Of a DNA stretch of 64,000 nt, positions 2,147 through 57,960 are shown piece after piece. The stretch is from Psilocybe cubensis. Lineage: Eukaryota. Position numbers and translations under genes: made by a program. The notes beneath the pieces were generated by a model. It was not told where the DNA came from, did not search any database, and saw only the letters and a list, made by a program, of their open reading frames with translations. The DNA lies in the NCBI GenBank assembly GCA_017499595.2, contig CM039006.1, positions 310,001 to 374,000 on the forward strand, read 5' to 3'. The first letter of the stretch is position 1, and each line of letters begins with the position of its first letter.

Positions 2147-4831
2147 ATGCCACCTGCATTCAACCAAGCCGATTCGGACCTCATCACCCAACTCCATGGC
2201 CTCAACGTGAAGCTCGTACGGTCTTCACTGTACAACGTGCCGATGGACGATGGTACCAGCATCGGTGTGCGGAGCTGGAAGATGAACGAATTCAAGTACT
2301 ATGACATCCCTTCGCCGTTCCCGACCCTTGCAAGAGGATTGTTTACCCGGGAATTGGATGAGGAGGTTGTTGAGGGAGAGAAGAAAAAGAAGAAACATCA
2401 GATCGTGATTCGTGGATACGACAAATTTTTTAACATTGGAGAGGTGCCTTGGACTACAGTACGCCGTGATCCATTTTATCTGATCTAACAATGCTAATCT
2501 CAGATTTCAGTGGGCCTCGCTCGAGTCGCACACAGCGGCGCCCTACACGCTCTCGCTCAAGTCTAACGGCTGCATTATTTTCTTCTCTGCGCTAACGCCG
2601 AACAAGTTGCTTGTAACGTCGAAACACTCGTTGGGCGCCGTCGAGGGCGCGCCGATGTCCCATGCACAAGCCGGTGAAGGGTGGTTGAGGAAATATCTCG
2701 AGAAACTGGGGAAGACAGAGGCCGATCTCGCAGGAGAACTATGGGAGAAGAATTGGACGGCGATCGCTGAGGTATTTTGTCAGGCTAGTTATCACTGTAT
2801 CCCTTGACTTATGTTTCTTCTCTCCCAGCTTTGCGACGATTCGTTCGAAGAACACGTTCTTGGATACCCACCCGAGAAGACTGGGCTGCACCTTCACGGG
2901 CTAAATGTGCGCACCAAGGACTTCATCACTATGCCCGCGGACGTCGTCGACGCGTTCGCAGATGCATGGGGGTTCATCAAGACGCCTACTATCACCCTGA
3001 ACAGCATCAAGGAGGTCAAGGACTTCACCACCGCATGTGCGGAAACAGGTGAGTGGAACGGGGAGCAAGTCGAAGGATTCGTGGTCCGGACACACGTTAC
3101 GGAGCCGCCCGCGGGTGGCAAGGACGGTGCGCCAAAACCCACGAGCAATAATCAGTCGCCGTACAAGCCTGGCTCGTCGTTCTTCTTCAAAGTCAAGTTT
3201 GACGAGCCGTATATGATGTACCGTGACTGGCGAGAGGTGACGAAGATGCTGCTCAGCTCTAAATCTGGCCTTGACGCCAAAAGCCTGCCAAAGTCGAAAA
3301 TGAAGCGCCCGGAGACAAAGCTGTATGTGCGTTGGGTGATCAGGGAGATCAAGCACAATCCCGGGGCATTCAAGGAGTATACGAAGGGTAAGGGCATTAT
3401 TGCGACCCGAGAAAGGTTTTTGGAATGGATGAAATCAGAGAATGCGGGAGAGGAGCTGAAGGAGCTCGAAAAAGAGGAGGGGACGGAGGAAGTGAAAGAG
3501 AACAAGAAAAAGTTTGAGAAGACGATTATTGTCCCAGTTGCGATTCCTGGTAGCGGTGCGTGTGTTTTTTGGTCTATCTCCTTTTTTTACTCATAATACA
3601 TATTGGACGGCAATATAGGGAAAACTGCTGTGTCAATTGCACTCTCACATCTTTTCGGATTTGCACACACACAAAGCGATGATATCCAAGTCAAAAAAGC
3701 GGGACCTGCCTTCATCAGAAACGTACGCTCACTCTTGGACCAACACGATGTCGTCATCGCGGACAAGTACGGTTTTTAATGATTTATTTACACATACATT
3801 TATTAAACTAATTTCGCAGGAACAACCACCTTACCCAACACCGCGATGCACTACGCGAACTCGTCGCAAAGTACCGAATGCCTGTACGCCTCTTAGCACT
3901 TAACTGGCCGGTAGACGATAAGCCGCCAGCAATGGTGCATCGCATTTGTTGCGACCGCGTTCTTGACCGCGGGGCCAACCACCAGACACTGCGTGCGGAT
4001 CCATCTGCTGCGCGCGCACACGAAGAGGTCGTGTGGTCGTTCATTCGCGAGGCGCAGCCACTTGCTCCCGTAGAGGCCGATGAGATTGTAGACATGAGCT
4101 TGGATGACACATTGGAGGAAGCCGTTGAACGAGCAATGGAGGGTGTCGTCCGGGTGCTTGGGGTGGAGAAACCCAGCAAGGAGAAAGTTAGTGAGGCGTT
4201 GGAGAAGGTGAAAGCGTATGAGCCTGCGGTGAAGAAAGCAGATGGCCAGGACGCGGTGGGCAAGGCAAGCAAGGCGGCCGCGGACCCTCGCTACTTTGGC
4301 CTGTTGCCCGAGATTGACATCGTGACGCTGCTTGACGAATGCTTGGCTGAGGGCAAGGATGGCGTCGACCCCGCCGTACGTGCGTTTTGGGAGCAGTTGA
4401 AGGCAGACGCGCGTGTCGCGCGCCGCCCTCATATCACGATTGTACACCGGAACGGCAAAGAAAAGGAGGCGGAGCTGTGGGCGCGTTGCTCTGTGCTACA
4501 CACAATGAGCATCACACCTCCTACATTCAAGGGCAAGCTGACTAACGTCTTGTGCAACGAAAGAGTTATGGCGCTCACAATGGAAGAACTGGAGGTCGCA
4601 GATCCAGGGCTGGGTGAGGGACAGGAAGGCGCCGAGTTCGTTTCAAAGCTGCCTGAAGAAGTGCGGAATCGACTACATATTACGGTGGGGACAAAAGCGG
4701 CAGACATTCCGCCCGTTGAGGCGATGTCAATGGTGATGGAGTGGAGAGAGAAGGGTAAGGTCGGTGGGACAAATATCGTACCACTGGAAGCTGTCTCTGT
4801 CCGGGGAAGGGTGAAGGGCCTTAATAGCTGA
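2147..4831 (+). CDS. TRL1: Fungal trifunctional tRNA ligase (adenylyltransferase, polynucleotide kinase and 2H cyclic phosphodiesterase domains), multi-exon
   Basis: Motifs SWKMNEFKYY, TLARGLF, RGYDKFFNIGE, ligase motif I LKSNG, AELCDDSFEEH, EGFVVR, FFFKVKFDEPY, kinase P-loop VAIPGSG|KT, and two 2H motifs (PHITI, LHITV). First ATG at 2147; a possible upstream extension is under findings. Confidence 0.93.
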
Positions 4832-7602
4832 GTGGGTTGGAGTAGACTTTGAAGACGAAGGAAGTAGGTGCTGTATATTATTCTGGTTATTTATTCCACA
4901 TCATCATTCGCCCCCGCTCTCACTTTTGCATCTTGTTGTCCCCCATTTCCCCGCATTCTCCTTCGTTGTCGCATTTTTTTCAACAATCTCCTCTCATTGC
5001 TACTCATATGGAACACAGGATAATCCGCTGTCGTAAACATGTATTTTTAGTACTTTATAGCAAATTGTTGAACCCCCGCACCATAGTTATGCAACATCGA
5101 CATGCCCTTTTTGAAGGTGTATACCGCAGAGAATTCATACGTTCCCATAAACTAAGATGGGATAGCACTGGAAATCAGCACGATCTGCTTGTGATAACTC
5201 AGTGGGTGCACAGCGCGTCGCGCCCCTAACATTATTCCTCTGCAACGCGTCAGTCACATGATCATATTGTCCTCATCGCGCCAGCTCCGATCGGTTCCGA
5301 ATGGCACTCTCTTTTCTCCTACACTCACAAGGTTGCCTGCTTTCCACTCAACTTGACCTATGCACCTATGGAAATCGGCAACTTAAAAAACTGAACAACT
5401 TGTAGGAAAATACGTGGCTTAGATTGAAAGGCGAGGATTTCTTGTTCTCACTACGCGGCAGTCTCTATGATCTGCGAAGGAACGGACTCAGATCTGAATA
5501 TGTAGCTGATGGATACTATAAAACCTTGCTTCGAAAGACTCGGGGATGTATGCATGGCATCTGGATTGGCATCGTAATGTCGGTCGAAAACACGTTGTGT
5601 GGACGTTGTATGAGCGAGGTTTGAGAACGTGCTGATACGCAGTGCAGCTCGCTAACCACGAAAATGGCGCGCGCACAAGTCCACTTTCCCACGCTTCACA
5701 TGACCGCGGAACATCAATACACCACCGACATTGCCCACCGACACCGAAATTCCTCGCTCCCGGTACCATTACTCATCGAATTCTAATCATCATTCTATTT
5801 CATATACGTCTTGGTAATACTTTGACAATTTTTCTTCATTTTATAATCGGACTTTCGTATACAAACACAGCTTTCATTTTACCCACACATCCCAAGTAAA
5901 TGCATTAGGCGCCCGGCTTCGCACCCTCGCCGTTTCCTCCCCATTCAAGAAATTTTTACATTTTAATTAATCTCCTTCTTCTGTAGACTTACTCATATTG
6001 TCTTGGCCTCCATATTTAGTTTTCGCTTCGCTTAGCTCTTTACAAATTTTGTTTTACACACACACACCAGCTCAGTAGTATAAAAACTAGCTAGAAAATT
6101 ATCTACAAAATAACACATCGTTCACCTTTCGTGCCAATCTCGTTCCCATCGTTCCAGCTGGTTAAGAAGACCAGGGAAACCCTCTCGCACCCTCAGACGC
6201 CTCTCATAGCGGTTCTCCAGTTGTTTCTACTTGTTTATTCATTTTTGTTTGCTCGACGCACCTAGGACGCCGCTGGCACATCAGTGCCTTTGTTGCCACA
6301 TCGTCTGGTACACACAACAACTTACTCGGATGACTCGATCGCTCAAAATTCCTTAATATCCGGTTTCTTCTTCGTTCAACTTGTCCTGCTTTTTTGCTTG
6401 CTCTTGCCTTCAATTTACGTGTGAAATTTACGCACTTCATTTTGAGCATCACACTCTTGTTCAAGTGTGGCGTCGGATGATCATGATCTAGAAGAAGACC
6501 CCTTTTATCAGGCTCTCTATGCTACGTCTGGTAGGACTACCTGGAATACGGTTAACAAGGCTATCTTTCAAACCTGAGATCCACAAGGCGTTATCTTATA
6601 TAGTGTCGATGAGTGGCCGCGACCCAGGAACCACAACATATGCTGAAATGGACTCAGCGGATCCTATCTTTGAATGTGTTTATGTGTGCTAGCCCTCACA
6701 AAGGTCGTTTAGTAATGAGGTGGACAGTGGCGGTGAGGCATTTTTCGTTCATCGAACGCCGCGTTCGGGATGCTCATCCTTTTTATCTTGCCATTCCATT
6801 AAGGCGGTACATGGACATCAACATGACACACGCACATTTGGGCAAAATACTCCAAAGAAATTGGAGTTACTCAATGAACAAGAATCTAAGGCTATGAGGC
6901 CTCGCCTCGACGAGAATGAGGCATGCGCGCGTGCACATGAGCGCTACAAAGGAATGATCTGTACTTACTGATATTGAAGAGAAGTACGCATTTGTATTCC
7001 CTTTCTCCTACCATCTGACTATCGACTTTGAGAACGCATGAAGGAAAAACCTCCCAGACGATGACTCAGATATTATCCCTGAAATAGATATGCCCAGTGT
7101 TCAAAATACGTTTCAGATGTGGCCTCCACGCAGATGTTTGCACTCAAATTCACACATTTCATCCACAACCTGATTCTCCCCCAAAGTACGCGCACCCTCC
7201 CTGACTATGGGAGATATACAAGTTTACGAAAATAGAGTGTGTTATACATGGCGCACCTTTAGGAATTGCATTTTCCTATTCCAATTGCAACTGTGTTGCT
7301 GGATAGAAGTGCGAGCCTTTGTCGCATTGAACGTGTCTGTCGAAATTTCTGGGGAAAAACCGGCCCTATACACACCGCGACATGCATCACATGATCGTGG
7401 GGTAAACGCCATTTTTCGCTCACAATCCGAGGCCGCGTCTATCTTTTCTTTGTTCTTCTTTTCGGACTATAGCACCTTCCACCTGCCTTCCACTAGTTCA
7501 ATGTTCTTAAACGATAAATATTTCAATTCTTTTGACATAAAAAGATAATATATTGCTAAGTGTTAACTATTTGCTTCTGAATGCGTTCCTGCTGAAGTGT
7601 AT

Positions 7603-8566
7603 TTAATACTCGAAAACCAAAGTCTCATCGCCATTCAAGTTATTGGGAGGCCTGACAATGGTGATTCCGTCGGCTGTATCTTGCCCGAATTGCCACGGGA
7701 TTGGGAAAATTCCGTTTGAATTGGCATCCAGAATGAAAATTTGGTTAAGGTCTGTCGGTTCATTGGGCAAGTTTCCAATATCATTTCCTCCAGTGATCTC
7801 GAGTGCCACAACGGCCGTGTTGAAATTCTCCAGTGTCTGGACGTTCAGACCTGCTGCCTGGAATCCTGAGAAGCCACAGAACCAGGCATGTGCTGGAGGT
7901 GTGGCCAAGAACTCGTCCTCGTTCACTACGAATGAATCGATGGGGACCGTGCCTGCTCCGAGTTGAGTGAGGTTGGAATGCGCGACTTGATCTCCAGAGA
8001 TAAACCACGACACGAGACTCCAGAATGTCCCGCCACCAGCGGCAGAAACCCCATATTGCAGAGTAGGTATGATGAGAGCGTCGATATTGGATGGAGCAAT
8101 ACCGGCAAAATACATGAGGAGCTGGCCGCTCTGGACTTGAGGCAATGGTGGTTGTACCCAATTTCCTTCGAACCCTCCTATACTGTTTACAGCTGCGAAC
8201 GCTGCGACTGTTGCATCCTCGAGGTTTCGACGATGGGCGGTGCGATTTTGGGGGGTTGGGAAGTTCAAACGAGCATTTTTATTCAACGGCGCGGTGTGGA
8301 AGAGCGAGCCATCAGCATTGAGCAGACGTATTTCCGTATCCGAATGGATGATCTTGCCACCTTCGGGGACCATATGAACGTTTGACTTCGGGACCAGGCC
8401 CACAGGAGTCCTCACTAATTCCTCGGTGGTGCTCTACATATGGAAAAAGTTAGGTACGAACTATTTCTGCAGAACGGTGAATACTTACAGTACCAACAGG
8501 ACTTGCGATTCCACTGAGCGCGTAAAATGCGAGCAGAATGCAGGACGATACAATTTTGAAAGACAT
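7603..8566 (-). CDS. Secreted protein with signal peptide and propeptide, tentatively peptidase G1 (eqolisin)/ConA-like fold; copy A
   Basis: Exon 1 MSFKIVSSCILLAFYALSGIASPVGT (signal peptide), a GTAAGT intron, then the 7603-8415 ORF with PTLQYGVSAAGGGTFWSLVSWF. Clear paralog of 33456-34418. The family assignment is inference from motif spacing. Confidence 0.8.
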
Positions 8567-10115
8567 AGGTGTAGTCGTCGTAATCGAGTCTTTCTTGTCA
8601 TCGTAGCGTCAGAGCGTCGTTGAAAACTTGCAGAGAATACTACTTCACCTGCTCAGCAAACAAGTTCCACAAAACTTGCTGTAGAATTGGGATCCATTGG
8701 CCCTCTTTTAAAGTGCTGGCGGGTACATTATCTTCCATTCTTTTCGCAGACTGGACATGCATTCCCTATTCAAACTGACGGCAACTGTGTCCTGTGACTT
8801 CGTATGTCCTTGGACATGAGAATGAGTATATTTTACGAGCTCTGTTCGAACAACCCGAGCAGCGGAAATGCTTAAAATACTAACTGTTTAGAACGGCACG
8901 GAAGAAAAGTTGGTCTCATGTAGGGTAACAATTCTCATGCTGCCTCCTGTTCCTGATATGAGGCCGGAATATCTGTTTACTGCATGGAAGAAAATAGATA
9001 ACTTAATAATTACAACCTTCCCCCGGTCAATGATCTCGTACACAAATTTCTGCATAATTCCATCGACTTCGATCATATATTTGGTGCACCCAGTCCTTCG
9101 AATGTCACTCAAAGTCAGCAAACAACGACAAGGTACTGTAGACATGAGTCTGTGGAATACAAATCTTCCGTAGGATTGTGGCATGTCCATTTATAATGGA
9201 GAAATGAATATGCTCGTTTGCAAGCTTCGGAGGAAAGATCCGACGTATACAATAATTCAATAGTATACTAAATAAAGCAGAAGTGGTTTCCCTCGCTTTC
9301 ATTATCCCTTATTTCACTGGGTTATTTTCTAGGAAAGATCATTTCATCGATGGATGCAGCGGTATTGTTAATAACATCCACGCGGAAGCGAGGTGTCAAC
9401 GGAGTGAAAATCATCGGTCGCATTTTTCGTTCCGTACTGCTTTGTCAGTCTTAACAACGAGGAGTCGATGATAGCATCTAAGCCCCAAAGCTTGTCTGAC
9501 ATTTTCTCCCTAGGTCGATCCGAATGCATTTTTCAAGCCGCCTTTGGGGCCGTTGTTAGTTCAATAAAACAGGAATACTAGAACAATTGATCTTAAACGA
9601 TCTTGAATATGACTCCACATATGATATAGTACGGTGCTTAACACCTTAAGACAGAGCAGAATCGGGCATCCATAGCTCTCGTTCGTGCACTTGGATGTTC
9701 TGAGTATCACAAACGACTGTAGGAGACACAAATAGAGCATCATTTTCAAGGAAAGATATAGTACTTTTTACCCAGACTACCCTCTCTCCCTATTTTATTT
9801 CTGTTTACAAAATAGTGAACTATCGTTTTACCGAAGGTGTACCACAAGTGTACCAGAACTTGAAACACACCTGAACAGAAGTCTGAAGCCAACTTGGACC
9901 CCTAGGATTTCCTTGTCTCCTCCGCGTACATCGCTTTCATGCTGTCTATTAACGCCATCTTCCCCACTTCATTGATAGACCCATAGATGTGAGTGAAATC
10001 ACCAAATAAGTAGACATTCAGCTTCCTCTCAGCGGATTACCTGTATCATGAACACTATGTTTGTTTCGCGCCTTCCCGCAACCCCTGAGTTGCAAATTGT
10101 CCCACCTTTCACAAG

Positions 10116-10258: not shown

Positions 10259-12667
10259 CTATAGAGGATGAGCAAGCGTCAGGTTGTTCAAAAAGGCAAT
10301 CTGGCTCTGTCTGAAATCATCTGTGGTCAAGGTTGTTGGGATTGTGCCGTCCAGGAACGTTAGCATCTGAGGTGATTTTGTTGTGTATTGTGGCCAAAGA
10401 ACGTTTCCAAACCCGTTTGGATTCAAAGTGGTGACAAAGCGTACGAGGTAGTTGGTGAGCTCTTCTCCACCGTAAACATTTAGGAGATCGGTGACATGCA
10501 TCTGTTGAAAAGTTGTCAACGACTGTTCACAAATATATCACCAGAATGACTTACTGCACCGAGAATTGGGAGAGTTTTGAATCGCTTGCTGACTGTTCAA
10601 CAAAATTAGATTAGTAAAAGGAACAAGAGCTAGCTGGTCATACGGAATGCGAATATCGTTTGTTTAGCTGCCCTATTCTGGAGTAAAAACCTTCGAGGTG
10701 CCTGGAATGTGAGATCCCCTTGAAGAGATGCCAGCCGCTTGTACTGAGGAGAGAGTGCATCTGTCACTCCAGTATCGTAAGGCGATCCCTGAGTCAAGTC
10801 CGATGGGTAGAGAGTGGCTAGTTGAGCAATTTCGGCATCCGTCACACCTATTCCTCTAAGGAGGGTGTTTTGGACGTAATCCTGGAACTCGGCTTCCGTC
10901 CTATTCCGTTTCCTGTTAGAACGCTCTATCCTCCATGCGGAAATGCGGCGCGCTTACGTGACATTAAGTGTCGAGAGTGAGAACAGGGTCCCTTCATCAT
11001 CACAGTCACCTAAAGATATCCATTTAGTAAATTAGCGCCTATTATATTCCCATGTTACTGACCTGATATGAATGGAACGTTTGAAATAATACCCTGTTGA
11101 ACCAGCCTCTGAGGGTTGTCAGTAAGAAAAATTCCATCGGCTCTTGGAGGCCAGGCCAGGTTCAAAGACTAGACAACCGTCAGATATATCGAAAATATTC
11201 ACTCGCTCAGCTCCTACCTGGAAGTCAAATATTCCGGGAGACTTGTCAATTGCAGCTTTGAACACATCAAACGGAAGTTCACGCAAGCATTGTAGAGTAT
11301 CCGCTGAGCCAGTGCATCCTGTTTCAGCAACTATTGTGTCATATAGGTCCTGTCCTTCAGTAATATCACCGACAGCCAGGAAGGATCCCGATTCCATAAC
11401 CGCGGCTCGGAATAGCCCCTCGTTGTTTCCATTGTTTGCGAGTAAATGAAGACCAACAGAAATGGCTCCTGCAGACTCTCCCCATCTAGTAGACGCAGTA
11501 AGAGAACGAATTATTATTATAAGCACGCCTTCTTCTGCGCTTACATGGTTACCTTGGTTGGATCACCACCAAATGCCCCAATGTATTTTTGAAGCCATCG
11601 CATAGCTTGACGCTCTAATACAATGTAAGTCCCAGTTTTGATCAGCAAGAAACCCCTTACGATCTTGAAGGCCGAGGTTCCCAACACCAGCAGCCTTTAC
11701 TTCCTTGCTGGCCAAGAATCCGAAGCCTGTGACAAGTACTGAGTAGACTGCCCGGGAGCGCCAAATAGTTTGAGTACGAACCTGTCAGCCTGCCAAACAA
11801 AGTATGGTTAGATTCAATACACTGAAAGCTATGACGACTTGCCTGTAATTAATGCTTGCGTAAACGACAGGCATCCCAAGCAGTATAGAGCGTTCTACGA
11901 TGACACTTCCGTCATACCTGAGATGTTAAATGCTCTGTCAGGTAGGCATATTTTATGTAGAGCGTATAAGTATACATACAGAGGGAACGAAGATGTCCCT
12001 TTCTCGAAACCACCTAACAATTATTCAATCTACGCAGATTGAATGTATGCAGAAATTGAGAACAAACCTCCATAAATCCACTGGAATCATCGTTAACTCA
12101 GAACGCAAGTAAGGAGTCAAGAAAAAAATTACGCACAAGGACAACAGGTAACTTTGATCTTGAGGTCGCAGTGGCTGGCGTTACCACATTTATCGTTAAG
12201 CCTGAAAATACACAATTTAGTTGCCATTGGCAATATGGATACAGTAAAAATGAAGCACAATCTTCAGAGAATGGGAAAATGGCATTGATTCCCAAATTGG
12301 TGATCATGTCAATAGCCTCAGATGGAAGACCGGCAGGGAGAGGCAATCCAATGTTTTGTTGTGGACATGCGGGTCCGAAGGCTGTCGCAAGGTGTGTGCC
12401 ATTATAGGGCAGGTTTTCAACTGGGAGCCTTAGGCGAAGGTCTCCTACCCTTCGGAAACATATAAGTAGTTAAACGCGATATTGAAACATACCAACGTAC
12501 GGGGGCTGAGCATAGGGAATGCCCAAAAACTGTGAAACAGTACCAAGCGAAGTTCCCGTGAACGTTCCGGAATCAAGCTTGACTGAGGGCCCAGCTAAAG
12601 CTGCACCAAAGGCAACACTTTTGGCTAACGCCGTAAGAGAAAACACGAAAAAATGCTTGATCTTCAT
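10259..12667 (-). CDS. Secreted type-B carboxylesterase/lipase (COesterase family), many short exons
   Basis: Signal peptide MKIKHFFVFSLTALAKS; FLGIPYAQPP; SEDCL; WIYGGGF across micro-exons; GNLGLQDQ; FGGDPTKVT; nucleophile elbow WGESAGA; GDLTFQAPRR. Confidence 0.9.
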
Positions 12668-21460: not shown

Positions 21461-22100
21461 CTAAAGCTTTGCCAACCCCATAACTACTGTAACGCGTTCT
21501 TCCAGGTACTTGACTCCTTTTCCAAACACCCGATATTTGATATTCAACTCGTGCAACAATGCCTCAAAGATCTCCCCACATTCTTGCTGGTTTTCCAAGC
21601 TCCGGACACCATCATCGTGTATCCATTCTGATACTGGCTTCAGTAAGATGACGAGAGACGTGTCGGAGCGATATCTAGCCAAAACCTTGCGGAATTTGTC
21701 GCTGTTCAGGAGAAATTCCTTCCTTGCCCGTCTGTCGTCGGCGTCAGTAGAGGTGAGGATAGCATAAACAACAGGATCAAGCGCCGATCTGTCGAACAGA
21801 CGAACACAACATCCAAGCTCATCCAACATCTTTTCTTGCTCAAAATATGCCTCCATGATGTCCTGTTGCATTTGCAATGAACCGATGGTGTCGCGCGAGT
21901 AACCTTTGTCACGCATGACCTTGCGAGCAATTTCAGTAACATAGGCAGGCTTTTGAAGCCCTAGACGCTGGGCCAAGGCATTGCAAAGTGTCGTCTTTCC
22001 TGTAGACTGTTTGGGTGCGCGTTAGTTTTTTATGACGTGTCTTGATATCATTACACACCGAGGGGCCTACGACGTAGATGGACAGCGTTTTTTCGGGCAT
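21461..22100 (-). CDS. Small P-loop NTPase/nucleotide kinase, NadR/Ttd14-like AAA_28 family (about 195 aa, 1 intron)
   Basis: MPEKTLSIYVVGPS|STGKTTLCNAL (Walker A split by an intron at about 22008-22058), EIAR, Walker-B-region FDRSALDPVVY and lid motif DDGVRS, all typical of AAA_28 kinases. Confidence 0.82.
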
Positions 22101-22224
22101 TTCTTGAATCGTCGCGATGGGTATGGGCAAGAGCAAGAGTTTCGAGTCTCTTTTTGAAAAGTTTCTCACAGCATGCCGATTATTCTCAGACGGGCGCCTA
22201 ACTTCTTGATCACCATCGATCACC
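22101..22224. promoter_or_regulatory. Putative bidirectional promoter between the AAA_28 kinase and the RdRP-helicase gene
   Basis: Only 124 bp separates two divergent ATGs (22100 on -, 22225 on +). Confidence 0.55.
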
Positions 22225-25200
22225 ATGCCTGGCCCAATTCTCCTTCGACAAAACCCACAGCCAGACGACGAAACATGGGAGTTTACTTTCGATCCTAAAT
22301 CTCTGTCCGTCCTGCAAAGACAGGGAATCAGCTACGGAAAACTCGTCACGCTGCGTCCGAATGGAATCTTCCTCCAGATGGAGCAGTTTCCTTCGAACAG
22401 AGTTCTCAACTTGGACGAAGGAGGTCCTAGCAAATTTGTCCTCCTTTCCATCGACCGTTTGTTCAGATTCGAGGAGCAACCAATGAAAGTCGTTGTTCAA
22501 TATATCATTCGCCTATTTAAGAGGGGTTTGTGGTTGAATGGTGTTCAGTACAGGTTCTACGGGCACAGCAACAGTCAACTGGTACGCAAACACGGCTGGG
22601 TCCAATTCATTGTGCTTACATCACCGCAGAGAGGGCGATCTTGCTTTCTTCGAGAAGCAAACTCTGACAAAGAGTTGGACGACAGGATTTACCAAATGGG
22701 CGACTTTGCGCGAATTATGAACGTTGCAAAACGTTGGTTGATCTGTTTATCACCGTCTTCAATGCTCATCGTATGACGTTTAAACCAGGTGCCAAACGGA
22801 TAGGCCTCATGTTCTCGTCTGCAGACATTGACTACAGCCTTGACCCTCGACGTGTTGGCGACATTCCCGATATCACAGATGGAGATGAAGTCTTCTCTGA
22901 CGGTTGTGGGCTCATCTCAAAATGGCTCGCCGTTCAGCTCAGCAAGAGGAAGAAAATTATTTTTCGAGGAGTAAGGTACACGCCTACGGTATTTCAAATT
23001 AGGTGAGTATTCACCTTCACGTTTCGTTGATTACCCCACTTATTCCGAGACGTTTAGGTATCTGGGATACAAAGGTGTGCTGATGCTCCACCCTGACCTT
23101 GACAAAAATGGTCTGGAACACGTCGCGCAATTTCGAAAGAGCATGAAAAAGTTTACTACCACGGTCGACCACACATTTTCCGTTGTAGGACATTCCAAGC
23201 CATACTCCTTTGGTCGACTCAACAACGACATTATAGTCCTGTTATCCAGCCTTGGTGTACCTGATTCCGCTTTCCTCCAAAAGCAACAGGAATATTTTGA
23301 CTGGATCATGTCTGTTTCCGGATCCGAGGACAAGGAGCCGGATCCAGTCAGCGCAGTAGACTTTCTATGTTGTCTATCCGAATACTCGCTCGCTGAACGA
23401 CTCCTTCTCGAGGGCATTGACAGCGAGCCGGTGAAGCGTGAGATACGCAGGTTGCAGAACTCAGAGGTCGCGAGTTCCCGCCAAGAAGGCACCAACAAGT
23501 TCAAATCGAGGATAATGGTACATAAATCGCGTCGATTGTATGGAGTGTGTGACCCCTATCAAGTTTTGGAAGAAGGCCAAGTTCACATTCGTATCTCTGT
23601 TGGGAGGAGAGGAGCCACGACACCTATACACGGGGATGTAATCGTGGTGCGAAATCCTTGTCTGCATCCAGGTATGGACTGCGTCCTTACGATTATGTAT
23701 CCCCAATACTTACCATTCTATGGCAATCCAGGCGACATTCTCAAGTTGCGTGCCGTAGATCACCCCAAGCTTTCCCATCTTTTGGATTGTTTGGTGTTCG
23801 CTAGTGTGGCTCGACCAGGGCACAAGGCTGCCCCATCAATGAGTAGCGGTGGAGACCTAGATGGTGGGCCTCACATTCTAAATCATATATAACGCTTGTA
23901 CTTATTTCATATGAAATCCATAGGTGACGAATTCTTTGTTTGTTGGGACAAAGACATCATACCTACCACGATCGCAGAGGCAAGTATTCGATTAAACTCT
24001 GTAAGAATGCATCTTAATGGATCAAACCACACTCTCAGTCTTATGATTATCCCGGGAACCGCGAACTTACCAAAAAGGATATCACTCGAGCAGACCTCGG
24101 CACTCATTTTGCATCCTATACATCGTCAGTCATGATTCCATTAAACTTAAAACCGCGAGTCCCTGAATCAGCTTTCTAGGTCGGGAGTAGCAAAGGTGTC
24201 TTCCCTACATGCTAAGTGGGCTCGCAGTAGCCCCAAAGGAGCACTTTGTGTCGAATGTCAAGAACTCAATGCCCTACACTCTCAGTCCGTAGATGGAGCT
24301 AACATTAGAATTCCAGAAAAGCTCTCCACGCCGCCTCCGCCACCACCAGGGATGGTATATGTTCTCGATGTATTGGAGGAAGCCTCTGAGAAATTCGCCA
24401 CCAAATTCTCTGAAGCGACGTCCCGTAGAACGGAAATCACGACATTGACTTCCAGAGATGATGGGGAACAGCTCCTGAAACGATTGCTACAAAGCGAACA
24501 GAACTCTTTGTCCGAGTTTGAACTCTTCAATCTGGCATATAGATTATCACAGAAGCATAACATCAACATACGGCCTTATCTCTCGCAGCTCGACTTCTCA
24601 GCATTGACGACTGAGCAGAAGCATATCATCAGCTCCGTTCTATCGCTTTCTGACATCGAGTACCCAGAGCTATGGAATTCTCTAGCAAGATCAGATATTC
24701 TTACGCCACAAGATTTATATCAACGCAACTTGGGTCGACCGTTCGCAATAAGTCGTCTTTACTCGTCGCGCAACAGTGGTTTAGTGACCTTTTTTGGGTA
24801 CCTAAAAAGGGCTACTCAAGAGTATACCAGAAAACTTCTTATTATCCAGGTAGGCATATAGCAGTGGAAAATTACCTGCTTCAAGTACGGCTGCTGATTA
24901 CATATGTAGACGGACCCAAGGTTTTCCATAGGAATATTTATGCGTGGTAAAATTCCTTGGGATGAGGATCTTGAAGTAAAAGAATCGAATAAAGATGGGG
25001 ACGCAATGAATGTGGTCGTATGTTCGTTCATGCCTAAAACGGCGTCTAATATCGCCACTCTTCGCACTTGCCAGACGGGCTACAGACTTCACTGCAGTGA
25101 TTATCGTTTCCAACTTTATGAAAGGAGTATCGGGAACACGTTTGTCTATATCAACAAATCCCCAGCCGAATTGCAGGCCCAAGTATCCACGAGTATAGCA

Positions 25201-28184
25201 CTGGATAAAATTTCACGAACGGTTCAAAAAGTAAGTTTTTAATACCTTCTTGACACTCGTAATTTGAAGAGAGGTCTGACCTTTCTAGCAACTCGGGCGC
25301 GTCAATAAAGCTCCTGCATTAAACATCGAACTTCATGTGGTGTCCAACCGCGATCGCGTCGCCCATCAGCTTTTTGACTTGTGGTTTGAACAGTAAGCTT
25401 TGTCTCTTTGATGCGTGATACCCTAACAAGCCTTCCCTTCCAACAGTGTCCCTACCGAAGAGTATGAGCGGCGCTTCCAGCGCGATCCAGCTCCTTACCG
25501 ACAAAATGATCTCAAAGACGTTGACTGGAGCTCGGAGGAAGTATCGAACATGAAAGATGTATTTTTTCGCAACATACCTGGTATCCCACTAGCTTCAAAC
25601 AGGCTGAAACACAATAAGGAGAGCATGGAGGAACAACTTTCACGGCGCATGATGCCAGAAATTGACAAGATTATGGAGTTTGCGATAAATCACCATGCGG
25701 AAGACGAGATATTCCTTGTGTTCGGATCGGTCATTGCACGTCAGCCCATTCCCCTTGACTTCATCGAACAGTGGATGGGCAGATACCCGACCTTGGCATT
25801 TACACTCCTGCAAATCTACCCTCCGAACGACAACGGTGAACTCCTCCCAGAGCTTGAGGAAATATCGTACCTCATTGTACGGAATGTTATCAGGTCCGCA
25901 AATGAGACAAAAATAGCTGCTCTGGTTGCGCTAGAGAAACTTGCAAAATCTATAGGCTCCATGCCCCTTCGCCATTACATGGACTTACTTATGCTCGCTG
26001 CGTTATCCGTTCGTGGAAAAACCCTGGTTCAAGAAGTATTTTTCCTTCTGAACGACGGGCGAAAAGCACATTGCCCCCCATCACCTAGAGATGAATACGG
26101 ACAGAAACATGCCCTGGGTGTGGCTTTTGATAGAGCAGATGAAGCAGCGGAGGAGTGTCCATGCAACGAGGATGGTCGGCCGCAAAGAAAGATGCGCGTA
26201 CCCCCCTCACACGCCAAGTTAAAATTCGATCCAGATTATGCCAACAAGGGAGAGGTCACGGCTACAATCAGAATTGACGCCAAAACTGCTGTCCGCCTTC
26301 ACTCCCATGTTCGACTGCAAGCCGCCTCTCGAGCAGAGAATCGTTGGATTGATGCACCAATTATGGATGGTGTTGTCGTGCAAGCCATAAAAGGCGAATT
26401 AAAGATAAAGTTATTTCATCCTGCGCCTCCTGAAATGGAAGTTATGGATTGGAATTTATATGATGCAGGGACTACAGGTACGCCTACACTAACAAGTCAA
26501 TTGCGATCGCAACAGGTTAACCTGGGATAATTAGCCACTAGCAATGCGATGATGGATGCTATTCAGCGCCTCCTTCACGATGACGAATGTTGTCTGTTCT
26601 ACGGTCTCATTATTGGTTCTGGTTCTATTGTTAGTGATGCTGCCGAGTTCAGAGACTTCGATGAATCCCAGCTCAGTCCAACATCAGGGCTGAATGAAAG
26701 TCAGATAAGAGCCATCGAATCATGGAGAAATCCCCTGTCACTGATCTGGGGACCACCCGGTGAGTAGACAGATAACTGCTTGCTCCATTCTGTCAAGTTT
26801 GAACTCGATTGACTCAGGAACCGGAAAGACCACCGTCATGGTACAAATACTCTGTGACATTATCAAGAGCTACGAAGAAACACCAAAAATTCTAATGACG
26901 GCATCAACTCACAATGGTAATGAGGTTCAAAATATCGCAGACAATCGACACTGATCGCTCTATTGTAATAGCTGTGGACAATGTTTTAGAACGATTTATT
27001 GCCATAAATGATTCGGAACATCTACTGAATGAAGAGCAGATCCTCCGAGTTGCGACCGACCAATCTAAAGTGAATCCTTCGCTTCATCATTATACAGTTA
27101 ATGATCGTGTTGGAGGAGATATGAATGAAAATAGCAAACTGTTCAAACAAGCTCAAAATCGAGTCGAAAACGCAGTTCTTATTTTTTCAACCTGTGCAGG
27201 CACGTAATAATTTCTGGATTCATCTAACATGTTTGTTGACATTGATATTTAGGCGCCGGCCTTGGAATTCTCCGAAAGCCAGACTTTGATATTGCATTGA
27301 TTGACGAGGCATCACAGATAACCGAGCCGTGTGCTCTCATACCCCTTGTAAAAGGAACAAAACGTGCTGTTATTGTAGGAGATCAGTGCGTCACCAAGAT
27401 GTACGGCTGTAATTGGTACTGAACTCTTGCAAAACATAGCGTACAGCTCCGCCCAACTGTCAAGGGCATGGGGAAGCCGCTGCAATACGACATTTCGCTT
27501 TTGGAACGGTTGTATACAAACAAGGAAGACACGCCCGATGGGCTTTCAAAGACGATGTTAGACGTCCAATATCGTTCACCAAGAATTCTGAATATATTCC
27601 CATCCAACGAATTCTACGAAGGCCAGCTAAAAACCCACGAATCAAACGCCGAGGTCTCAACTTTCATGTCCTTGTCTCAATTCCCATGGCCAACTGAAAA
27701 CGGTACGATCATTCCGACCGTGTTTATTCAATGCTCAGAGCAAGAAGACGAGGATGGTGGTCGTTCTAAGAGCAACAAGGGCCAAATAGAAGTTATCAGT
27801 CGTGTCCATCCTCTCATCACCTCTCAGCGACCAGACACCCCCATTGAACCGAAATTGGCGGAGCTAAAAATTGCGGTACTCTCGCCATACACGAAGCAAA
27901 TAGATGCTCTGAAGAGAAAGCTCCCTTCATCCATTAGATGTTCAACTATTGACTCTTTCCAAGGACGCGAAAGCGACATTGTCATCTTCTCCACTGTCAG
28001 ATGCAATGTGAGCGGAGAAGTTGGTTTTTTGGATGATCCCCGAAGGTTGAACGTCATGTGGACTCGTGCTCGCCTGGCTTTGATTATAGTTGGAGACAGG
28101 GGCACGATGAGTACCAACCAGCAATGGAAGCGAGCTTTGGATGCCTGCACCGAAGTAGTTTTGCCTACTGTCTCAAATGCGTAG
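22225..28184 (+). CDS. RNA-dependent RNA polymerase (cellular RNAi type) fused to a Upf1/Sen1-like SF1 helicase; 16 exons, about 1,705 aa
   Basis: RdRP motifs YRFYGHSNSQLR, AKRIGLMFS, FSDGCGLIS, FQIRYLGYKGVL, RLYGVCD, VRNPCLHPGD, catalytic SGGDLDGDEFFVCWD. Helicase motifs LNESQ, WGPPGTGKTT, STHNAVDN, LIDEASQ, VGDHVQLRP, SLLERL, LDVQYRS, SPYTKQ, TIDSFQGRESD, RRLNVMWTRAR. Fifteen introns traced by hand (22582-22629, 22733-22788, 23003-23057, 23672-23731, 23864-23923, 23980-24038 GC-AG, 24125-24179, 24850-24909, 25231-25288, 25393-25446, 26478-26534, 26760-26817, 26917-26971, 27200-27252 GC-AG, 27386-27439) give one uninterrupted 5,118-nt frame. Confidence 0.88.
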
Positions 28185-41332: not shown

Positions 41333-44300
41333 ATGAAGCTCAAGGAAATCCACAGAACATCGACATTTGCCTGGTCGCCGTCGGCGTCGCTTCCGTTGCT
41401 GGCCACTGGAACTGTAGCGGGCGCTCTTGATGAATCATTCAGCAACGAGAGCCAACTGGAAATATGGGCTCCGGATTTCCTGGACAGAGATGAGTTCGAT
41501 CTTGGGAGGGAAGGTGGTCATGGGCCAAAAGGTCGTGTCACAGACACAGCCAGGTTAGTACTACAGGTGTTGAACGCTAAACTTGCTCATTAATGGTGAT
41601 CGTGCAGATTCAATCGTCTAGCATGGGGACACGTTGACGCGGCTCGCCCTCAAGGTGTCATCGCTGCCGGCTTGGAGAACGGCGAGTTGGCTTTATGGGA
41701 TCCGGCAAAGATACTTTCAGGAGCAAGGTACGACATAGGTCGTATATTCCAACAGTGGTCTGACTGAAGATGTGCAGTGCTTCTGAATCTCTCATTCTGC
41801 GAAATACTACACATACAGGTCCTGTGCGCGGTCTCGATTTCAATCCACTGCAAACAAGCCTGCTCGCGTCAGGAGGCGTTAGTGGCGAGGTAATGAGCAC
41901 CCTATGATCTCATTAGGTCTACTGATATGTTGCTAGGTGTACATCTGGGATCTCAAAGACCCCAGCAAGCCGTACTCGCCTACTCCCGGGCAAAGGAGTA
42001 CGAAACTAGACGAGATCACCTCCGTGGCGTGGAATCAACAGGTCCAGTATGTGCTTGCTGGCGCAAGCAGCACAGGTTTCACTGTCGTGTGGGATCTACG
42101 AGGCAAACGTGAAGTGGTTGCGCTGACGTACGGCGGTGGTGCTGGCACCTTGGCTGGACAGTCTGGAACGGGAATGGGAATGGCTGTTGGAGGTAGACGG
42201 GGGATGAGCGACATTGCATGGCACCCCGATAACGTCAGTATAATCGCATCTTTATGCTTCTCATCCTCACTGTATACTGTAGGCTACAAGGCTTGTGACA
42301 GCGTCGGAGGATGATTCGTCTCCCATCCTCATGGTCTGGGACCTGCGTAATGCACGCGCTCCTGAGAAAGTAAGTGTACGTTTGTTGTTTCGGAAACAGG
42401 TTACTGATAGACATTTAGATTCTCACCGGGCACGAGAAAGGTGTCCTTTCTCTGTCATGGTGTAAACAAGATGCAGACTTGCTCTTGTCATGTGGTAAGG
42501 ATAACCGCGCTCTGTGCTGGAATCCTCAGACATATGAAGTTATCGGCGAGGTTTGTCTACGTTCGCCATAATCCCTCAATTTTTTCTAACCAATGCTTTC
42601 TAGCTTCCTTCTGCTGATAACTGGGCATTCCAAGTTGACTGGTGTCCTCGAAACCCCGATATGCTCGCGACTGCCTTCTTCGATGGCACCATCGGAATCC
42701 ACTCTATCCAATCCACAAATGAACCTTTGACCGACGCTCAAAAACCAACACCTAGGGCTGATGGTGCTGACATCTTTGACGCCCCCGGTTTCTCTCGGTC
42801 CGGTCAACAGGCCACACTATCACTCAAACAGCCACCCAAATGGCTTAGACGCCCAGTGTCAGCTTCGTTCGGGTTTGGCGGCAACCTCGTTACAGTGTCT
42901 AATTTGTCTTCGGCTCAGGGCAAGACTCAGAGCAGTGTCGTGCACATAAGAAAGGTTGTGACAGAGTCAGACCTTGTGGAAAGGGCGACCAAGTTGCAAG
43001 CGGCCATCGAAGGCGACAGTCTGCAGACATTTGCAGAAGAGAAAACCACGGCGACAGAGGAGACCACAACTGTCGGCAGCGAGGGATGGAAGGCTCTACT
43101 GAGCTTGTTTAAGGCTAACTCGAGGAACGAGCTGGTAACACTGCTCGGATTCTCCAAGGCTGAAATTGCCGCCCGCGTTGCAGAGGCTGTCGAAAATCTC
43201 AAGGCTGCTGCAGAGGCTGACGCCGCCAAATCTCCTTACGACGGCGACGCGACATCAACTCTCGCTGACAAGCCTCACGAATCTGTTGTCTCGTTTGCTG
43301 AGCCGGAAAGCGAGGAGGTGCCTTCGGATCGCAGCGAGGTGGGAGATGACTCAGAAGCTGCCACGCCATTCGGTGCGGACGAACAGACGCTCTCGGAGGC
43401 CAAAGATGAAGAGGAATCTGCCACAACGGCCCCGAGCCTCTTTGGTGATGACATCCCTGGAACACCCCAACACGACTTTTTCAACACCGTTGGCGTTGCA
43501 CAAGACAACGGCGAATCACATCCTGTTCTCGTCCCTCACACCAACTACGGTATTGATTCTTCAGTTGCTGCTACTACCGGATCTGGTCCTTCGTCGGTCA
43601 CCTCGGAAGTTCTTACCAAAGCCAGTGGTGCAAGTGGGTTCAGAATTTACCCCTCGGAGGAGTCCGACAACGACCGCCTCGTTACAAAGGCGCTTGTTCT
43701 AGGAGACTTTGAAAGCGCGGTTTCCCTCTGCCTATCTTCAGATCGCTATGCGGATGCCATCCTCCTTGCTGTGCGAGGCGGCCCTGAGCTTTTGCAGCGC
43801 ACTCAGAAAGCGTACTTTGAGCGCAGAACCACACAACAACCATATCTCCGTCTCTTGCAGTCCATCGTGTCGAACGACCTTAGCGACATCGTTCAGAACG
43901 CCGATTTACAGGAATGGAGAGAAATCTTCGTCGTCATCTGCACGTTCGCGGGTCAAGAGGAATTCCCCACTTTGGCTGAGCAGCTGGGTAGCAGGTTAGA
44001 GTATCAGTTCACAGTGTCGCAGGGATCAGATGATCCGGAGGTCGTGGAGGAGGCCTACGCGTTCAGGAAGAACGCCACGCTTACATATCTTGCGTCGGCT
44101 CGCCTGGAAAGGCTAATCAACATTTGGGCTGATGAATTGCTCCAAGAAGAAAAGGCGTTGGTTGCTGATGAGAGTAATGATACTGGCTCGTATTACTCGG
44201 CCCATGCCCACGCTTTGCAGACCTTCATCGAGAAAGTCACCGTATTCCGTGCCGCCACCAACTACAAAGATGAAGCATTGACGTCGTCCTCTGCTGAACC

Positions 44301-46193
44301 TGCTCAAGCTTACAAGCTCGCGTCGCTCTATGATCGTTACTTTGAATACGCCGAGCTGCTCAGCACACAGGGTCTGTTGAAAGAAGCGGTCAGCTTCTTG
44401 AAGCTGACACCTGCTGGGTACAAAGGTGCAACCCCTGGCGCAGATTTGGAGTCTGAGAGAAAGAGATTGGTAGCTGCTACCACTGCGGGTCCTGTGGCGA
44501 GTACCTCCACAGCTGTACCTGCTCCTGTTACGTCGACAGCAGCGCCGACTAGAGGACCATACGCGCCTTCGGTGGCTCAGACTCAAGCTCCATCTCAACC
44601 TTATGCTACACGATATGGCCCTACTGGAGGCGAACCCAAGCCGCCAGTTCCTCAGCAACAATCTGCCTATGCTCCCCCTACGCAGTCTGCATACGCTCCT
44701 CCTGCAGCTCAGCAGTCAGCTTATGCTCCGCCAGCCACACAGACTGGCTATGCACCTCCGGCAAACAACTACCAAAATCCTTACAACCGATCCACCTCAC
44801 TCACGCAACCCCCACACCTCCGCCAACCTCCTCCGCAGCCTGACTCGTTTGGACCACCGCCGCCTAGGGCCCAAAATGGTACGCCCTCCAATAGCAACAT
44901 TCCGCCAGCGCCTCCACCGAAACGCGATACCAGCATTGGTTGGAATGACCCTGTGAACGTCCCCTCCTCGCGTCCTCCAGCGGCACTCAACCTGAACAAG
45001 CCGGCTGCAATCACCTCGCCCTTCCCAAATGCTCCCGCAACGCCAGGATACTCTCCCCAGGGATCTCCTTATATTGGACATGGACAGGCATCCGCGACGC
45101 TCCCTCCCCCACCGCGTCCTGGAAGCGTGGGCCTGAACCGCGGTGGGTCTGTTCCTCCTCCGGCGGGCGGACCTCCTCCCCCAGGCGGCCCCGGCATTCG
45201 TGGGCCGCCTTCCGCAGGTGTGTACCCCGGCCCGCCTGGTCCCGGTGTTAGGCCGCCCTCGCGGTTGATGTCACCATCTCAAGGCCAGAATTTGCCGCCA
45301 CCACCGCAAAGGCAACCGACCCCTAGCCAGTACGCCCCCCCGCCGTCGAGGGGACCTGCTCCTGGACATACACCCCCACCACCGGGTCAGTACGGTCGTC
45401 CGCCTGCTCCAGGACAGGGGCTGCAGCAACAGCAGCATCAACAAGCTCCTCCCCCACCAGGGCCTTACGGACCAGGACCAGGCCATGTAGCTCAGCCTCC
45501 TCCTCCTGGGCCATATGGACCCCCGCCTCAGCAACACCCTGGGCCTTCACAGCAACAGCAACCCTCACCTCCTCAGCAAGCCGGTGGCCCACCCCCTCCT
45601 CCAGGAGGTCCTGGTGCACCACCTCGCACAGTCTCTAGAAGTGCTGCTCCTGCTCGCGCGGCACCTGCTGCTCCAAAATACCGTATGTTTTCTTTCAGAA
45701 GTTAGTAACTAAGATGAGACTGATGGTACTTCCAGCTGTTGGTGATAGAAGCCATATCCCTGAATACGCGCAGCCTGCTTTCGTCAGCATCTCTAACCAT
45801 CTTACGAGGATGAAGCAGACTGTTCCTGTAATTAACATATGTTATTTGAGCGATTTGACGGATATTAATATTTTTCTTCCTCTCACAGGCTAACCAAAAG
45901 CGACTTATTGACGACCTTGAAAGGAGGATCAACCCATTGTTCGACGCACTCAACTGCGAGACTATCTCAAGGCCTGTGGTCGACCAACTGATCGTCTTGA
46001 CAAGAGGTAGGGATGCTCGTATCTAACGTTTGCTCATCCCTCTAACACTTTCTTTTACTTTTTCGTAGCAATGGATGCCCGTGATCGTGCTGCAGCTCTG
46101 TCAATTCATGTCGAGCTGTTGACTCGTGGATCGCAAACGGATGACATCGGATTATGGATGTCAGGCATCAAGCAATTGATTATGAGTCTGTGA
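41333..46193 (+). CDS. SEC31: COPII outer coat protein Sec31
   Basis: [18 protein letters not shown]40 repeats ([46 protein letters not shown]); [17 protein letters not shown]; alpha-solenoid; Pro/Gln-rich region; C-terminal [28 protein letters not shown]. Confidence 0.95.
44650..44770 (+). repeat. Coding tandem repeat (QQSAYAPP-like, 4 units) in the Sec31 proline-rich region
   Basis: [36 protein letters not shown]. Confidence 0.7.
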
Positions 46194-56631: not shown

Positions 56632-57960
56632 TTTGGGGTTTAGAGGATACGCAAAAGGTACACTCGTTGAGGTCTTAAATACTCGAACCGAGAACCGGTT
56701 TGTGGGCTTTGAGGTGTGAAAACATGGGTATGAGATAGAACATGGAAGGCGGGGTGAAAAGACGTACCTTGGCCGGCCCATTTTGTCCAAACTTCATGCC
56801 TGAAGATACGTTGGGGAGGAGAGAGGAGAACATATTGGAGAAGCGGTAGGGCTCAGCATCATAGGGTACGACAAACCAGGACGTGTGAAATATAAGTAGG
56901 GATGAATTCGGACATCACGCTATCCACACGAGTGAAGCTTGAGGCAACACATGCGGCCAATTATGATCGAGAATTCTATGCAGCCGTTTCGGTGCGAGGG
57001 CAAATGACACTGCAACAAGTTGCGAATAGCAGAATCTTCTGACATCCGTGCCACTGTTGATGAGCATTAGCAACTGCAGCACTGGAACGCGAAAGAAGCC
57101 GAATCTCACATGTGAGTGAGTAGAGTAAGCTCCACCGAAGATGCACCTCCTTGACAATTTGTTTCACCATCCGTGTTATTAATAACAGGGCGCAAAGTCC
57201 CTGGCATTCGCCTGCGCCTTCGTTCCATGAAAAGCAGGCCGAAAAAGGAAGAAAGCGTCGTTCCTGATCGTTGTACACTTATGGTAGCCATGAAGAAAAT
57301 CACTTTAATGGCTGACGCTCCCCGATGGACAAGGAGTTCGGCCTGCTGCTGTGTGGCTGAGGTTATAGCTGCTTTACATGAGCGTTCCACGAGCGTCAAA
57401 ACACTGAACGGGGTTTGTCGGATTGAAAGAAGGTGCAATAGGTCAAAGTTCCGGAATATTCTAACCTATTGACTATGATGAGTTAATTGTGAGTGACACA
57501 AATGCCTCTAGGACTCCATGCTACGCTGCACGCACCTCCTTCCTCGGCATTCGGCTCATAATATCTTCTGAAATAGCATCAACTGAGATCGTATTTGGAT
57601 CGTAGCCAAATTGTAATCCATTCAAGCTTTAAGGTATATTAGCTGGATCGTTATTGACAGTCTTCCCAGTCAGTAAGAGTAACATAAAATGAGAGCAACA
57701 GCAGCAGCCTGACAATAGTAGTAACATAGGAACTAGGAATTGACTAGTAGGAATGTCATTCTCGTCAAGAGTCGAAAGTTGATGCGGACAATAGACTTAG
57801 CTGATAAATTATATAATCAATTCCTTCAAAAATCATTCAGTCAAGAACAAATACCGGTACTGGTTTAACGTTTACCTTGACACTCAACTTGAACGACATT
57901 TTGTTTTATCCAAGGGCAAGTAATTCTTGGGCTTTGCGGAGGTGAATGTTATAAAACGAT

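Follow-up and report, generated by a model that had tools for sequence, protein, structure and literature searches.

The 64,000-nucleotide stretch of Psilocybe cubensis DNA analysed here (the window; contig CM039006.1 of assembly GCA_017499595.2, positions 310,001 to 374,000 of the forward strand) carries two genes arranged head to head. A small gene on the minus strand encodes a P-loop kinase of the AAA_28 family, and a large gene on the plus strand encodes a fusion of RNA-dependent RNA polymerase (RdRP) with a helicase. Both protein families are already known; the new element is their pairing, which recurs in other Agaricomycetes and reaches into the Ascomycota. In the following, we describe the two genes, trace the pair through related fungi and weigh what may hold it together.

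Gene structure of the pair

The kinase gene runs from 22100 to 21461 on the minus strand, contains one intron and has a spliced product of 195 amino acids (aa). Splicing joins GPS to STGKT and thereby restores the Walker A motif GPSSTGKT; DRSALD and DDGVR are also found in the kinase. The preliminary description of this DNA had read the gene as a small P-loop kinase with these three motifs, and both the sequence reading and the splicing bear this out. The product of exon 2 is 100% identical to the deposited P. cubensis protein JR316_0009553.

Intron bridging was assessed with contigs of run X1, whose kind is recorded only as a guess ('RNA?') and which was not used for depth. Both the kinase and the RdRP-helicase are covered by intron-less X1 contigs. 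At the kinase intron, an X1 contig joins 22006 to 22059, and contigs of X2 and X3 retain the intron. The contigs cannot rank or correlate expression, and X1 depth is not comparable between the two genes. X1 is without cover over 22248-22721 and at the window edges, and X5 covers three bins only.

The structure of the large gene was obtained by mapping the deposited 1313-aa P. cubensis model (P0121) and a 1721-aa Galerina protein (P0122) onto the window. Reading the splice sites revealed a single gene of 16 exons, from 22225 to 28184, with an open frame of 1705 aa that is 75% identical to the Galerina protein over aa 5-1699. Introns cut through two of its signature motifs: DLDGD (aa 471) is rebuilt across intron 23864-23923, and the helicase Walker A GPPGTGKT (aa 1302) is interrupted by intron 26760-26817 as GPPG/TGKT. 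Together with DEASQ at aa 1431, both motifs are intact in the spliced product. X1 contigs skip 11 of the 15 introns, leaving 22582-22629, 22733-22788, 25231-25288 and 26478-26534 unbridged, and X2 and X3 contigs keep the introns. Two of the 15 introns are of the GC-AG instead of the GT-AG type, and the X1 joints are compatible with this (Table 1).

The deposited 1313-aa model stops early and misses the helicase half, because intron 26760-26817 is read through to an in-frame stop. One X1 contig spans the last exon of the deposited model and continues into the helicase exons. As a practical by-product of this analysis, the fusion gene was found to be split or truncated in the deposited model of P. 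cubensis as well as in several others. In Serpula, for example, model S7.9 has 1246 aa vs 1660 aa for S7.3, and the fusion gene of Paxillus ammoniavirescens appears in two pieces, one an RdRP, the other a 370-aa 'putative restrictase' (P0243). The latter name had raised the idea of a nuclease domain, which we rejected, as P0243 is the C-terminal helicase half of the split model.

Table 1. Positions in the window of the features of the kinase and RdRP-helicase genes.
Feature	Position	Strand	Details
Kinase exon 1	22059..22100	-	ATG at 22100; reads MPEKTLSIYVVGPS, the first half of Walker A; matches deposited protein P0001
Kinase intron	22007..22058	-	52 nt, GT..AG, CTAAC branch site; interrupts the Walker A motif
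Kinase exon 2	21461..22006	-	181 codons and stop; begins STGKT; TEIAR, DRSALD and WIHDDGVR motifs
Region between the start codons	22101..22224		124 bp; presumed bidirectional promoter and 5' untranslated regions; contains TTAGGCGCCCG
RdRP-helicase exons 1-6	22225-22581, 22630-22732, 22789-23002, 23058-23671, 23732-23863, 23924-23979	+	Open frame, splice sites
RdRP-helicase exons 7-11	24039-24124, 24180-24849, 24910-25230, 25289-25392, 25447-26477	+	Open frame, splice sites
RdRP-helicase exons 12-16	26535-26759, 26818-26916, 26972-27199, 27253-27385, 27440-28184	+	Open frame, splice sites
RdRP catalytic region (PF05183)	22225..24300	+	Pfam; end approximate, equal to aa 560 by exon mapping
GC-AG intron	23980..24038	+	GCAAGT..CAG, 59 nt; X1 joint 23977 to 24037, 2 letters fit either side
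Family-specific middle region (exon 11, aa 886-1230)	25447..26477	+	Structure model: helical domain, then beta-barrel
UPF1-like superfamily 1 (SF1) helicase core (AAA_11/AAA_12)	26535..28184	+	Pfam, motifs
Intron read through by the deposited model	26760..26817	+	P0121 can be mapped as far as 26764; X1 contig joins 26757 to 26817; Galerina P0122 continues across
GC-AG intron	27200..27252	+	GCACGT..TAG, 53 nt; X1 joint 27197 to 27251, 4 letters fit either side

Domain composition of the two proteins

The kinase matches the Pfam family AAA_28 (PF13521) with E 8e-18 and 65.6 bits, against a cut-off of 27, over profile positions 9-157 of 164. In a profile comparison with the Protein Data Bank (PDB), its best match was the ribosylnicotinamide-kinase (RNK) domain of NadR (6gye, E 3e-8, chain residues 181-331). 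A structure model of the kinase, with a predicted local distance difference test (pLDDT) score of 91.8, was searched with Foldseek; NadR again came out nearest (TMq 0.72-0.73; 0.72 for 6gyf), followed by deoxyadenosine and thymidylate kinases. In NadR, according to the available part of its description, Walker A lies at residues 187-195, Walker B at 254-260 and the lid at 304-318 (PMC7221760). In the profile alignment, Walker A, the Walker B aspartate and the lid motif DDGxR of the fungal kinase are in register with those of NadR.

Among 27 kinases from Asco- and Basidiomycetes, there is little or no variation in Walker A, ExAR, DRSxxDxxxY and WxxDDGxR, and the kinase is under purifying selection as an enzyme. 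Because the NadR motifs are kept and both sequence and fold are NadR-like, the protein looks like an active, stand-alone nucleoside- or nucleotide-type kinase rather than a degenerate NTPase. The nicotinamide mononucleotide (NMN) adenylyltransferase domain of bifunctional NadR is absent, AAA_28 being the sole domain in the 195-aa kinase; its relatives measure 150-280 aa.

For the large protein, Pfam detects the RdRP domain (PF05183) with E 2e-47 on one exon and with E 2e-102 in the Galerina orthologue. AAA_12 is found with E 2e-46, and AAA_11, which is weak on a single exon, reaches E 2e-33 in the orthologue. The nearest solved relative of the helicase is NAM7/UPF1 (E 5e-42, from a comparison of the homologous piece P0243 with the PDB). 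Between polymerase and helicase, exon 11 was modelled with high confidence (pLDDT 93.0), showing first a helical domain and then a beta-barrel. This middle region has no Pfam match and no Foldseek match at E <= 0.001; its barrel aligns weakly to UPF1 chains in Foldseek (E 0.025-0.035, 88-94 columns).

An alignment of 36 sequences showed that the RdRP-helicase is collinear with 35 fungal homologues from Basidiomycota and Ascomycota. Within it, 8 near-unique insertion columns set the window's protein apart, and 3 conserved columns are missing from it. It is 34% identical to Fusarium graminearum FGSG_09076 (aa 14-1697 vs 21-1703), with which it is collinear and shares the order of RdRP followed by helicase. 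Judged by sequence, the large gene is a member of the published Fgrdrp5 family.

Conservation of the pair and turnover of its neighbours

To follow the pair through other fungi, metagenome contigs were scanned with a kinase alignment, which yielded 50 kinase loci. At least 500 bp upstream of the kinase was present in 37 of these, corresponding to 32 clusters at 95% nucleotide identity. An RdRP match on the opposite strand lay directly upstream of the kinase in 36/37 loci and 31/32 fungal contig clusters, and the helicase was part of the upstream gene in all 12 clusters with a sufficiently long contig. The 23 clusters analysed fall into 12 groups below 60% kinase identity.

The outer flanks served as controls. 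A comparison of the genes located downstream of the kinase revealed any coding similarity in only 14 of 171 pairs, and past the RdRP-helicase's 3' end only 3 of 55 pairs have the next gene in common. Because the outer neighbours turn over in this way, the region is not generally rearrangement-proof. The preliminary description had asked whether an AAA_28 gene accompanies the RdRP-helicase more often than chance would allow; with linkage in nearly every cluster, from Agaricomycetes into Ascomycota, and the outer neighbours turning over, we conclude that it does. A lack of conserved linkage in other fungi, which that description had taken as counting against its proposal, clearly does not apply.

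Annotated genomes agree with the metagenome loci. In all five Agaricomycete kinase/RdRP pairs that were looked up, the GenBank accessions of the two proteins are consecutive (Galerina KDR76561/62; Serpula EGN92536/35; Jaapia KDQ53777/76; Artomyces KAI0063599/600; Gyrodon KAF9226165/66). Ephemerocybe angulata, Amanita phalloides and Coprinellus aureogranulatus carry the two genes under consecutive locus tags; the tags lie 5 apart in Amanita inopinata and 8 apart in Panaeolus cyanescens. For 23 species that occur in the tables of both genes, a hand comparison placed kinase and RdRP on longest contigs of equal size in 18 and of unequal size in 5.

The pair also extends beyond the Basidiomycota. 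Loci L044-46, which form one cluster, carry a kinase only 33% identical to that of the window and keep the head-to-head arrangement with a 244-bp gap. We assign these loci to Pleosporales-like ascomycetes, because Setomelanomma and Parastagonospora have RdRP-helicases with 72% identity to theirs. The Atlas clusters in which this kinase is placed are commonest in Ascomycota. In Apiospora rasikravindrae, adjacent locus tags denote the RdRP-helicase (PG993_014204) and the kinase (PG993_014205). The kinase is present in Fusarium equiseti and F. flagelliforme, and the fusion occurs among the matches listed in Dothideo-, Sordario-, Leotio-, Lecanoro-, Eurotio- and Pezizomycetes. The divergent pair appears to predate the split between Ascomycota and Basidiomycota.

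Kinase and RdRP distances between loci are correlated (r 0.73), and none of 999 Mantel permutations reached this value, as is expected for joint vertical descent. This bears on an alternative put forward in the preliminary description, namely that the two genes form an accessory defence cassette which is gained or lost as a unit beside a stable EXO70 gene. The genes do travel together, and the helicase piece P0243 resembles the bacterial defence helicase MkoA in PADLOC (E 3e-60), a likeness that probably reflects shared SF1 helicase ancestry and fold. However, the pair occurs across all major Agaricomycete orders sampled and across many classes of Pezizomycotina, and the divergences of its two members track each other. 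Exo70_C was confirmed by Pfam in the window, but EXO70 follows the kinase only there and in the closest relative, L001. PADLOC gave no match for the RdRP piece or the middle region and only weak ones for the kinase (mad8, E 1e-5; Csx3, E 6e-4), and the members of the pair do not match models of one known prokaryote-type defence system. We therefore abandon the claim of gain and loss next to EXO70 and consider a defence cassette of this kind highly improbable. The pair is old and vertically inherited, and is not a mobile cassette tied to EXO70.

The region between the start codons

The kinase ATG (22100, minus strand) and the RdRP-helicase ATG (22225, plus strand) are 124 bp apart, exactly as the preliminary description had stated. 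Genes on opposite strands whose 5' ends lie less than 1 kb apart are classed as bidirectional pairs, and the distance between the two ATGs is well within this range. In related loci, the estimated start-to-start gap is 123-682 bp with a median of 164 bp, L019 being a negative outlier, and about 120-250 bp in most lineages. Since these gaps are so short, a shared bidirectional promoter is plausible and is predicted here.

We compared the intergenic regions of the window and 30 related loci for recurrent words. GGCGCC/AGGCGC words occur in 16 of the 31 regions and GATAAG in 19; after base shuffling, no 6-mer was present in more than 13 regions. As many of the loci are close relatives, this excess may reflect inheritance and not a shared cis element.

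The proximity of the start codons, with 124 bp between them in the window and 123-250 bp in most lineages, leaves little room for two separate 5' untranslated regions and promoters. The 5' transcripts might consequently overlap, and the natural double-stranded RNA arising from them would exert feedback on either the RdRP-helicase or the kinase. What is conserved would then be head-to-head transcription as such, and the enzymatic identity of the kinase would be incidental. We consider this improbable. The catalytic motifs of the kinase are invariant, which is unexpected if its identity did not matter, and the X1 contigs end within the coding regions, with the bins at 22248-22721 uncovered.

A possible link between the kinase and RNA silencing

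A neighbour that is retained while its surroundings change is a signal that often points to functional partners. From the conservation of the pair we infer a functional coupling between the kinase and the small-RNA pathway of the RdRP-helicase, a reading whose chances we regard as evenly balanced. The short shared region would act as a bidirectional promoter that co-regulates both genes, and selection would hold them together because the kinase serves that pathway. As NadR relatives phosphorylate the ribose 5'-hydroxyl, the fungal kinase is proposed to do the same, acting either on RNA ends or on a nucleoside or nucleotide that the polymerase uses. As an outcome, templates or products would carry the 5' phosphate state required downstream. 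The choice of substrate appears to be the weakest and least certain step of this proposal.

A more specific version, which we put forward tentatively and consider rather doubtful, casts the NadR-like kinase as a dedicated partner that has stayed adjacent for several hundred million years and provides the third activity of a machine like the RNA-directed RNA polymerase complex (RDRC). Its task would be to determine whether template or product RNAs carry a 5' phosphate, or to provide the polymerase with an unusual initiating nucleotide, for example of the NMN or nicotinamide adenine dinucleotide (NAD) type.

Several observations weigh against a coupling to RNA silencing. The nearest relatives of the kinase act on small molecules, namely nicotinamide riboside, deoxynucleosides and deoxythymidine monophosphate, and would fit ordinary metabolism as well as an RNA role. 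Locus L019 has an intact kinase reading frame beside a decayed RdRP (7368-9633), which contains in-frame stops and frameshifts and has lost its N terminus and the helicase. In L024, the kinase has no RdRP neighbour and faces a different divergent gene at 1746-2087. A single chain with both RdRP and AAA_28 domains, an arrangement envisaged in the preliminary description, did not turn up: PF13521 is found in 0/120 and 0/120 of the best RdRP relatives listed, and among the best 150 kinase representatives none exceeds 563 aa and none is fused to an RdRP. Among named Ascomycota, adjacency was seen in one species only. The two genes lie on unequal contigs in Hydnomerulius, Scleroderma, Agrocybe and two Lentinula species, which could be due to different assemblies or paralogues. 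Finally, the text of the Fgrdrp5 paper, in the part available, does not mention a neighbouring kinase, although its supplements could hold neighbour or expression data (PMC11237814).

The longer forms of the kinase were also considered as informative fusions and rejected. P0494 carries a P450 domain and P0432 one of the ricin lectin type, no second domain is present in the others, and all look like merged or extended gene models.

The main rival to a functional coupling is that the kinase is a metabolic enzyme, similar to a nicotinamide riboside kinase and without a role in silencing, which stays in place because a break between the genes would damage one or both promoters. We give this explanation a substantial chance of being right, though clearly less than an even one. 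It accords with the short gaps, with the small-molecule kinases nearest to it in sequence and fold (NadR RNK, deoxyadenosine kinase and thymidylate kinase), with the lack of fusions among the relatives listed, and with the intact kinases of L019 and L024, which sit beside a decayed RdRP or another gene. Relatives of the kinase are named 'nicotinamide riboside kinase' by the Joint Genome Institute (JGI), an automatic label that points in the same direction. However, both outer neighbours are quickly lost, whereas the pair is kept from Agaricomycetes to Pleosporales-like fungi and Apiospora, far deeper than the turnover of its flanks. In some lineages, moreover, the estimated gap widens to 451-682 bp and the pair is nevertheless unbroken.

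Fungal RNA silencing is known mainly from Neurospora and fission yeast, both of which are absent from the best 120 and best 120 fusion relatives listed. RdRP-helicases of the Fgrdrp5 type are widespread in mushrooms and filamentous ascomycetes, yet only one functional study deals with them, and our literature search found no description of a fungal RdRP paired with an AAA_28 kinase. The head-to-head arrangement from Psilocybe to Pleosporales-like fungi may thus mark a possible unrecognised partner of fungal RNA silencing. It provides a concrete hypothesis, in which the 195-aa kinase could be a missing step in small-RNA biogenesis that concerns the chemistry of 5' ends. If the kinase were indeed a dedicated partner, it would add to fungal small-RNA biogenesis a kinase step that no model organism has revealed. 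Even if only a promoter links the two genes, they would be a rare divergent pair conserved across the Dikarya.

Other genes in the window and in related loci

A fungal tRNA ligase gene lies at 2808-4831 on the plus strand of the window, with tRNA_lig_kinase and tRNA_lig_CPD domains on the open reading frame (ORF) 3812-4828. It encodes a polynucleotide kinase, for which we suggest no link to the pair, located some 17 kb away. Two long single-frame ORFs of 1033 and 778 aa, at 42604-45705 (plus strand) and 54457-56793 (minus strand), lie where the window is richest in G+C. Both are Pro/Ala- or Ser/Pro-rich and have no Pfam match at E <= 0.001; by eye, we take the N terminus of the 1033-aa ORF to resemble SEC31.

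Some neighbours of the kinase in related loci were likewise judged by eye. The divergent gene of L024 (1746-2087) has a cysteine pattern like that of a Zn2Cys6 fungal transcription factor. An unrelated ORF further upstream in L019 (5500-6261) presumably resembles VPS35. In L044, an intron-less ORF of 541 aa just downstream of the kinase (10979-12604) is, we assume, similar to a transposase of the pogo/Tc5 type.

Comparison with known systems

Conserved divergent gene pairs with bidirectional promoters, such as the histone gene pairs, are well known. Like the pair described here, they lie on opposite strands, with starts within a few hundred bases of each other, and are conserved over long ranges. 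Kinase and RdRP-helicase differ from such pairs in that they have no known common pathway.

Of the solved structures, the RNK domain of NadR (Lactococcus lactis 6gye/6gyf; Haemophilus influenzae 1lw7) provides the best profile and fold match to the fungal kinase, and Walker A, Walker B and the lid DDGxR can be aligned between them. The fungal protein differs in standing alone, without an NMN adenylyltransferase or DNA-binding domain, and identity is about 20%. Polynucleotide 5'-kinases act in RNA silencing and repair, examples being human Clp1, which acts on small interfering RNA (siRNA), T4 Pnk and the kinase domain of fungal Trl1. These are lidded P-loop kinases that act on the ribose 5'-hydroxyl, which is the activity proposed for the kinase of the window. 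The analogy is a functional one only, as they belong to different P-loop families, and none stood out among the top Foldseek rows for the window's kinase.

The RDRC of Schizosaccharomyces pombe is composed of the RdRP Rdp1, the helicase Hrr1 and the nucleotidyltransferase Cid12; SAD-1 and SAD-3 of Neurospora are included in the comparison. In such systems an RdRP works together with an RNA helicase and an accessory nucleotide-handling enzyme. In the pair analysed here, polymerase and helicase are joined in a single chain, and a nucleotide-type kinase, not a nucleotidyltransferase, is what has been conserved next to it. A Cid12-like gene does not belong to the conserved surroundings of the pair, the gene on the far side of the RdRP-helicase being so rarely shared. 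The discussion of the Fgrdrp5 study, in the part of it available, mentions Hrr1 and SAD-3 as well (PMC11237814).

The closest characterised system is Fgrdrp5 itself (FGSG_09076 of F. graminearum), which the accessible text assigns to an RdRP branch of its own, characterised by DEXDc and AAA domains (PMC11237814). It has the same domain order (RdRP, DEXDc, AAA_12) and a similar length, 1721 vs the window's 1705 aa, and it appears (as P0344) among the listed relatives of the RdRP of the Pleosporales-like locus. We found no literature on FGSG_09075 and FGSG_09077, the tags numbered on either side of it. Deletion of Fgrdrp5 lowered the reads of 21-25-nt exonic siRNAs with a 5' U by about 32% and ascospore discharge to 47.6%, and the same portion of the paper ties the protein to exonic siRNAs and to the maturation and discharge of ascospores, not to a shown antiviral role (PMC11237814). 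Outside the fungi, the Branchiostoma RdRP candidate BL02069 has been reported, in the section of that source available, with an AAA_12 domain (PMC6396948). Fusions of an RdRP with an SF1 helicase may therefore not be confined to fungi.

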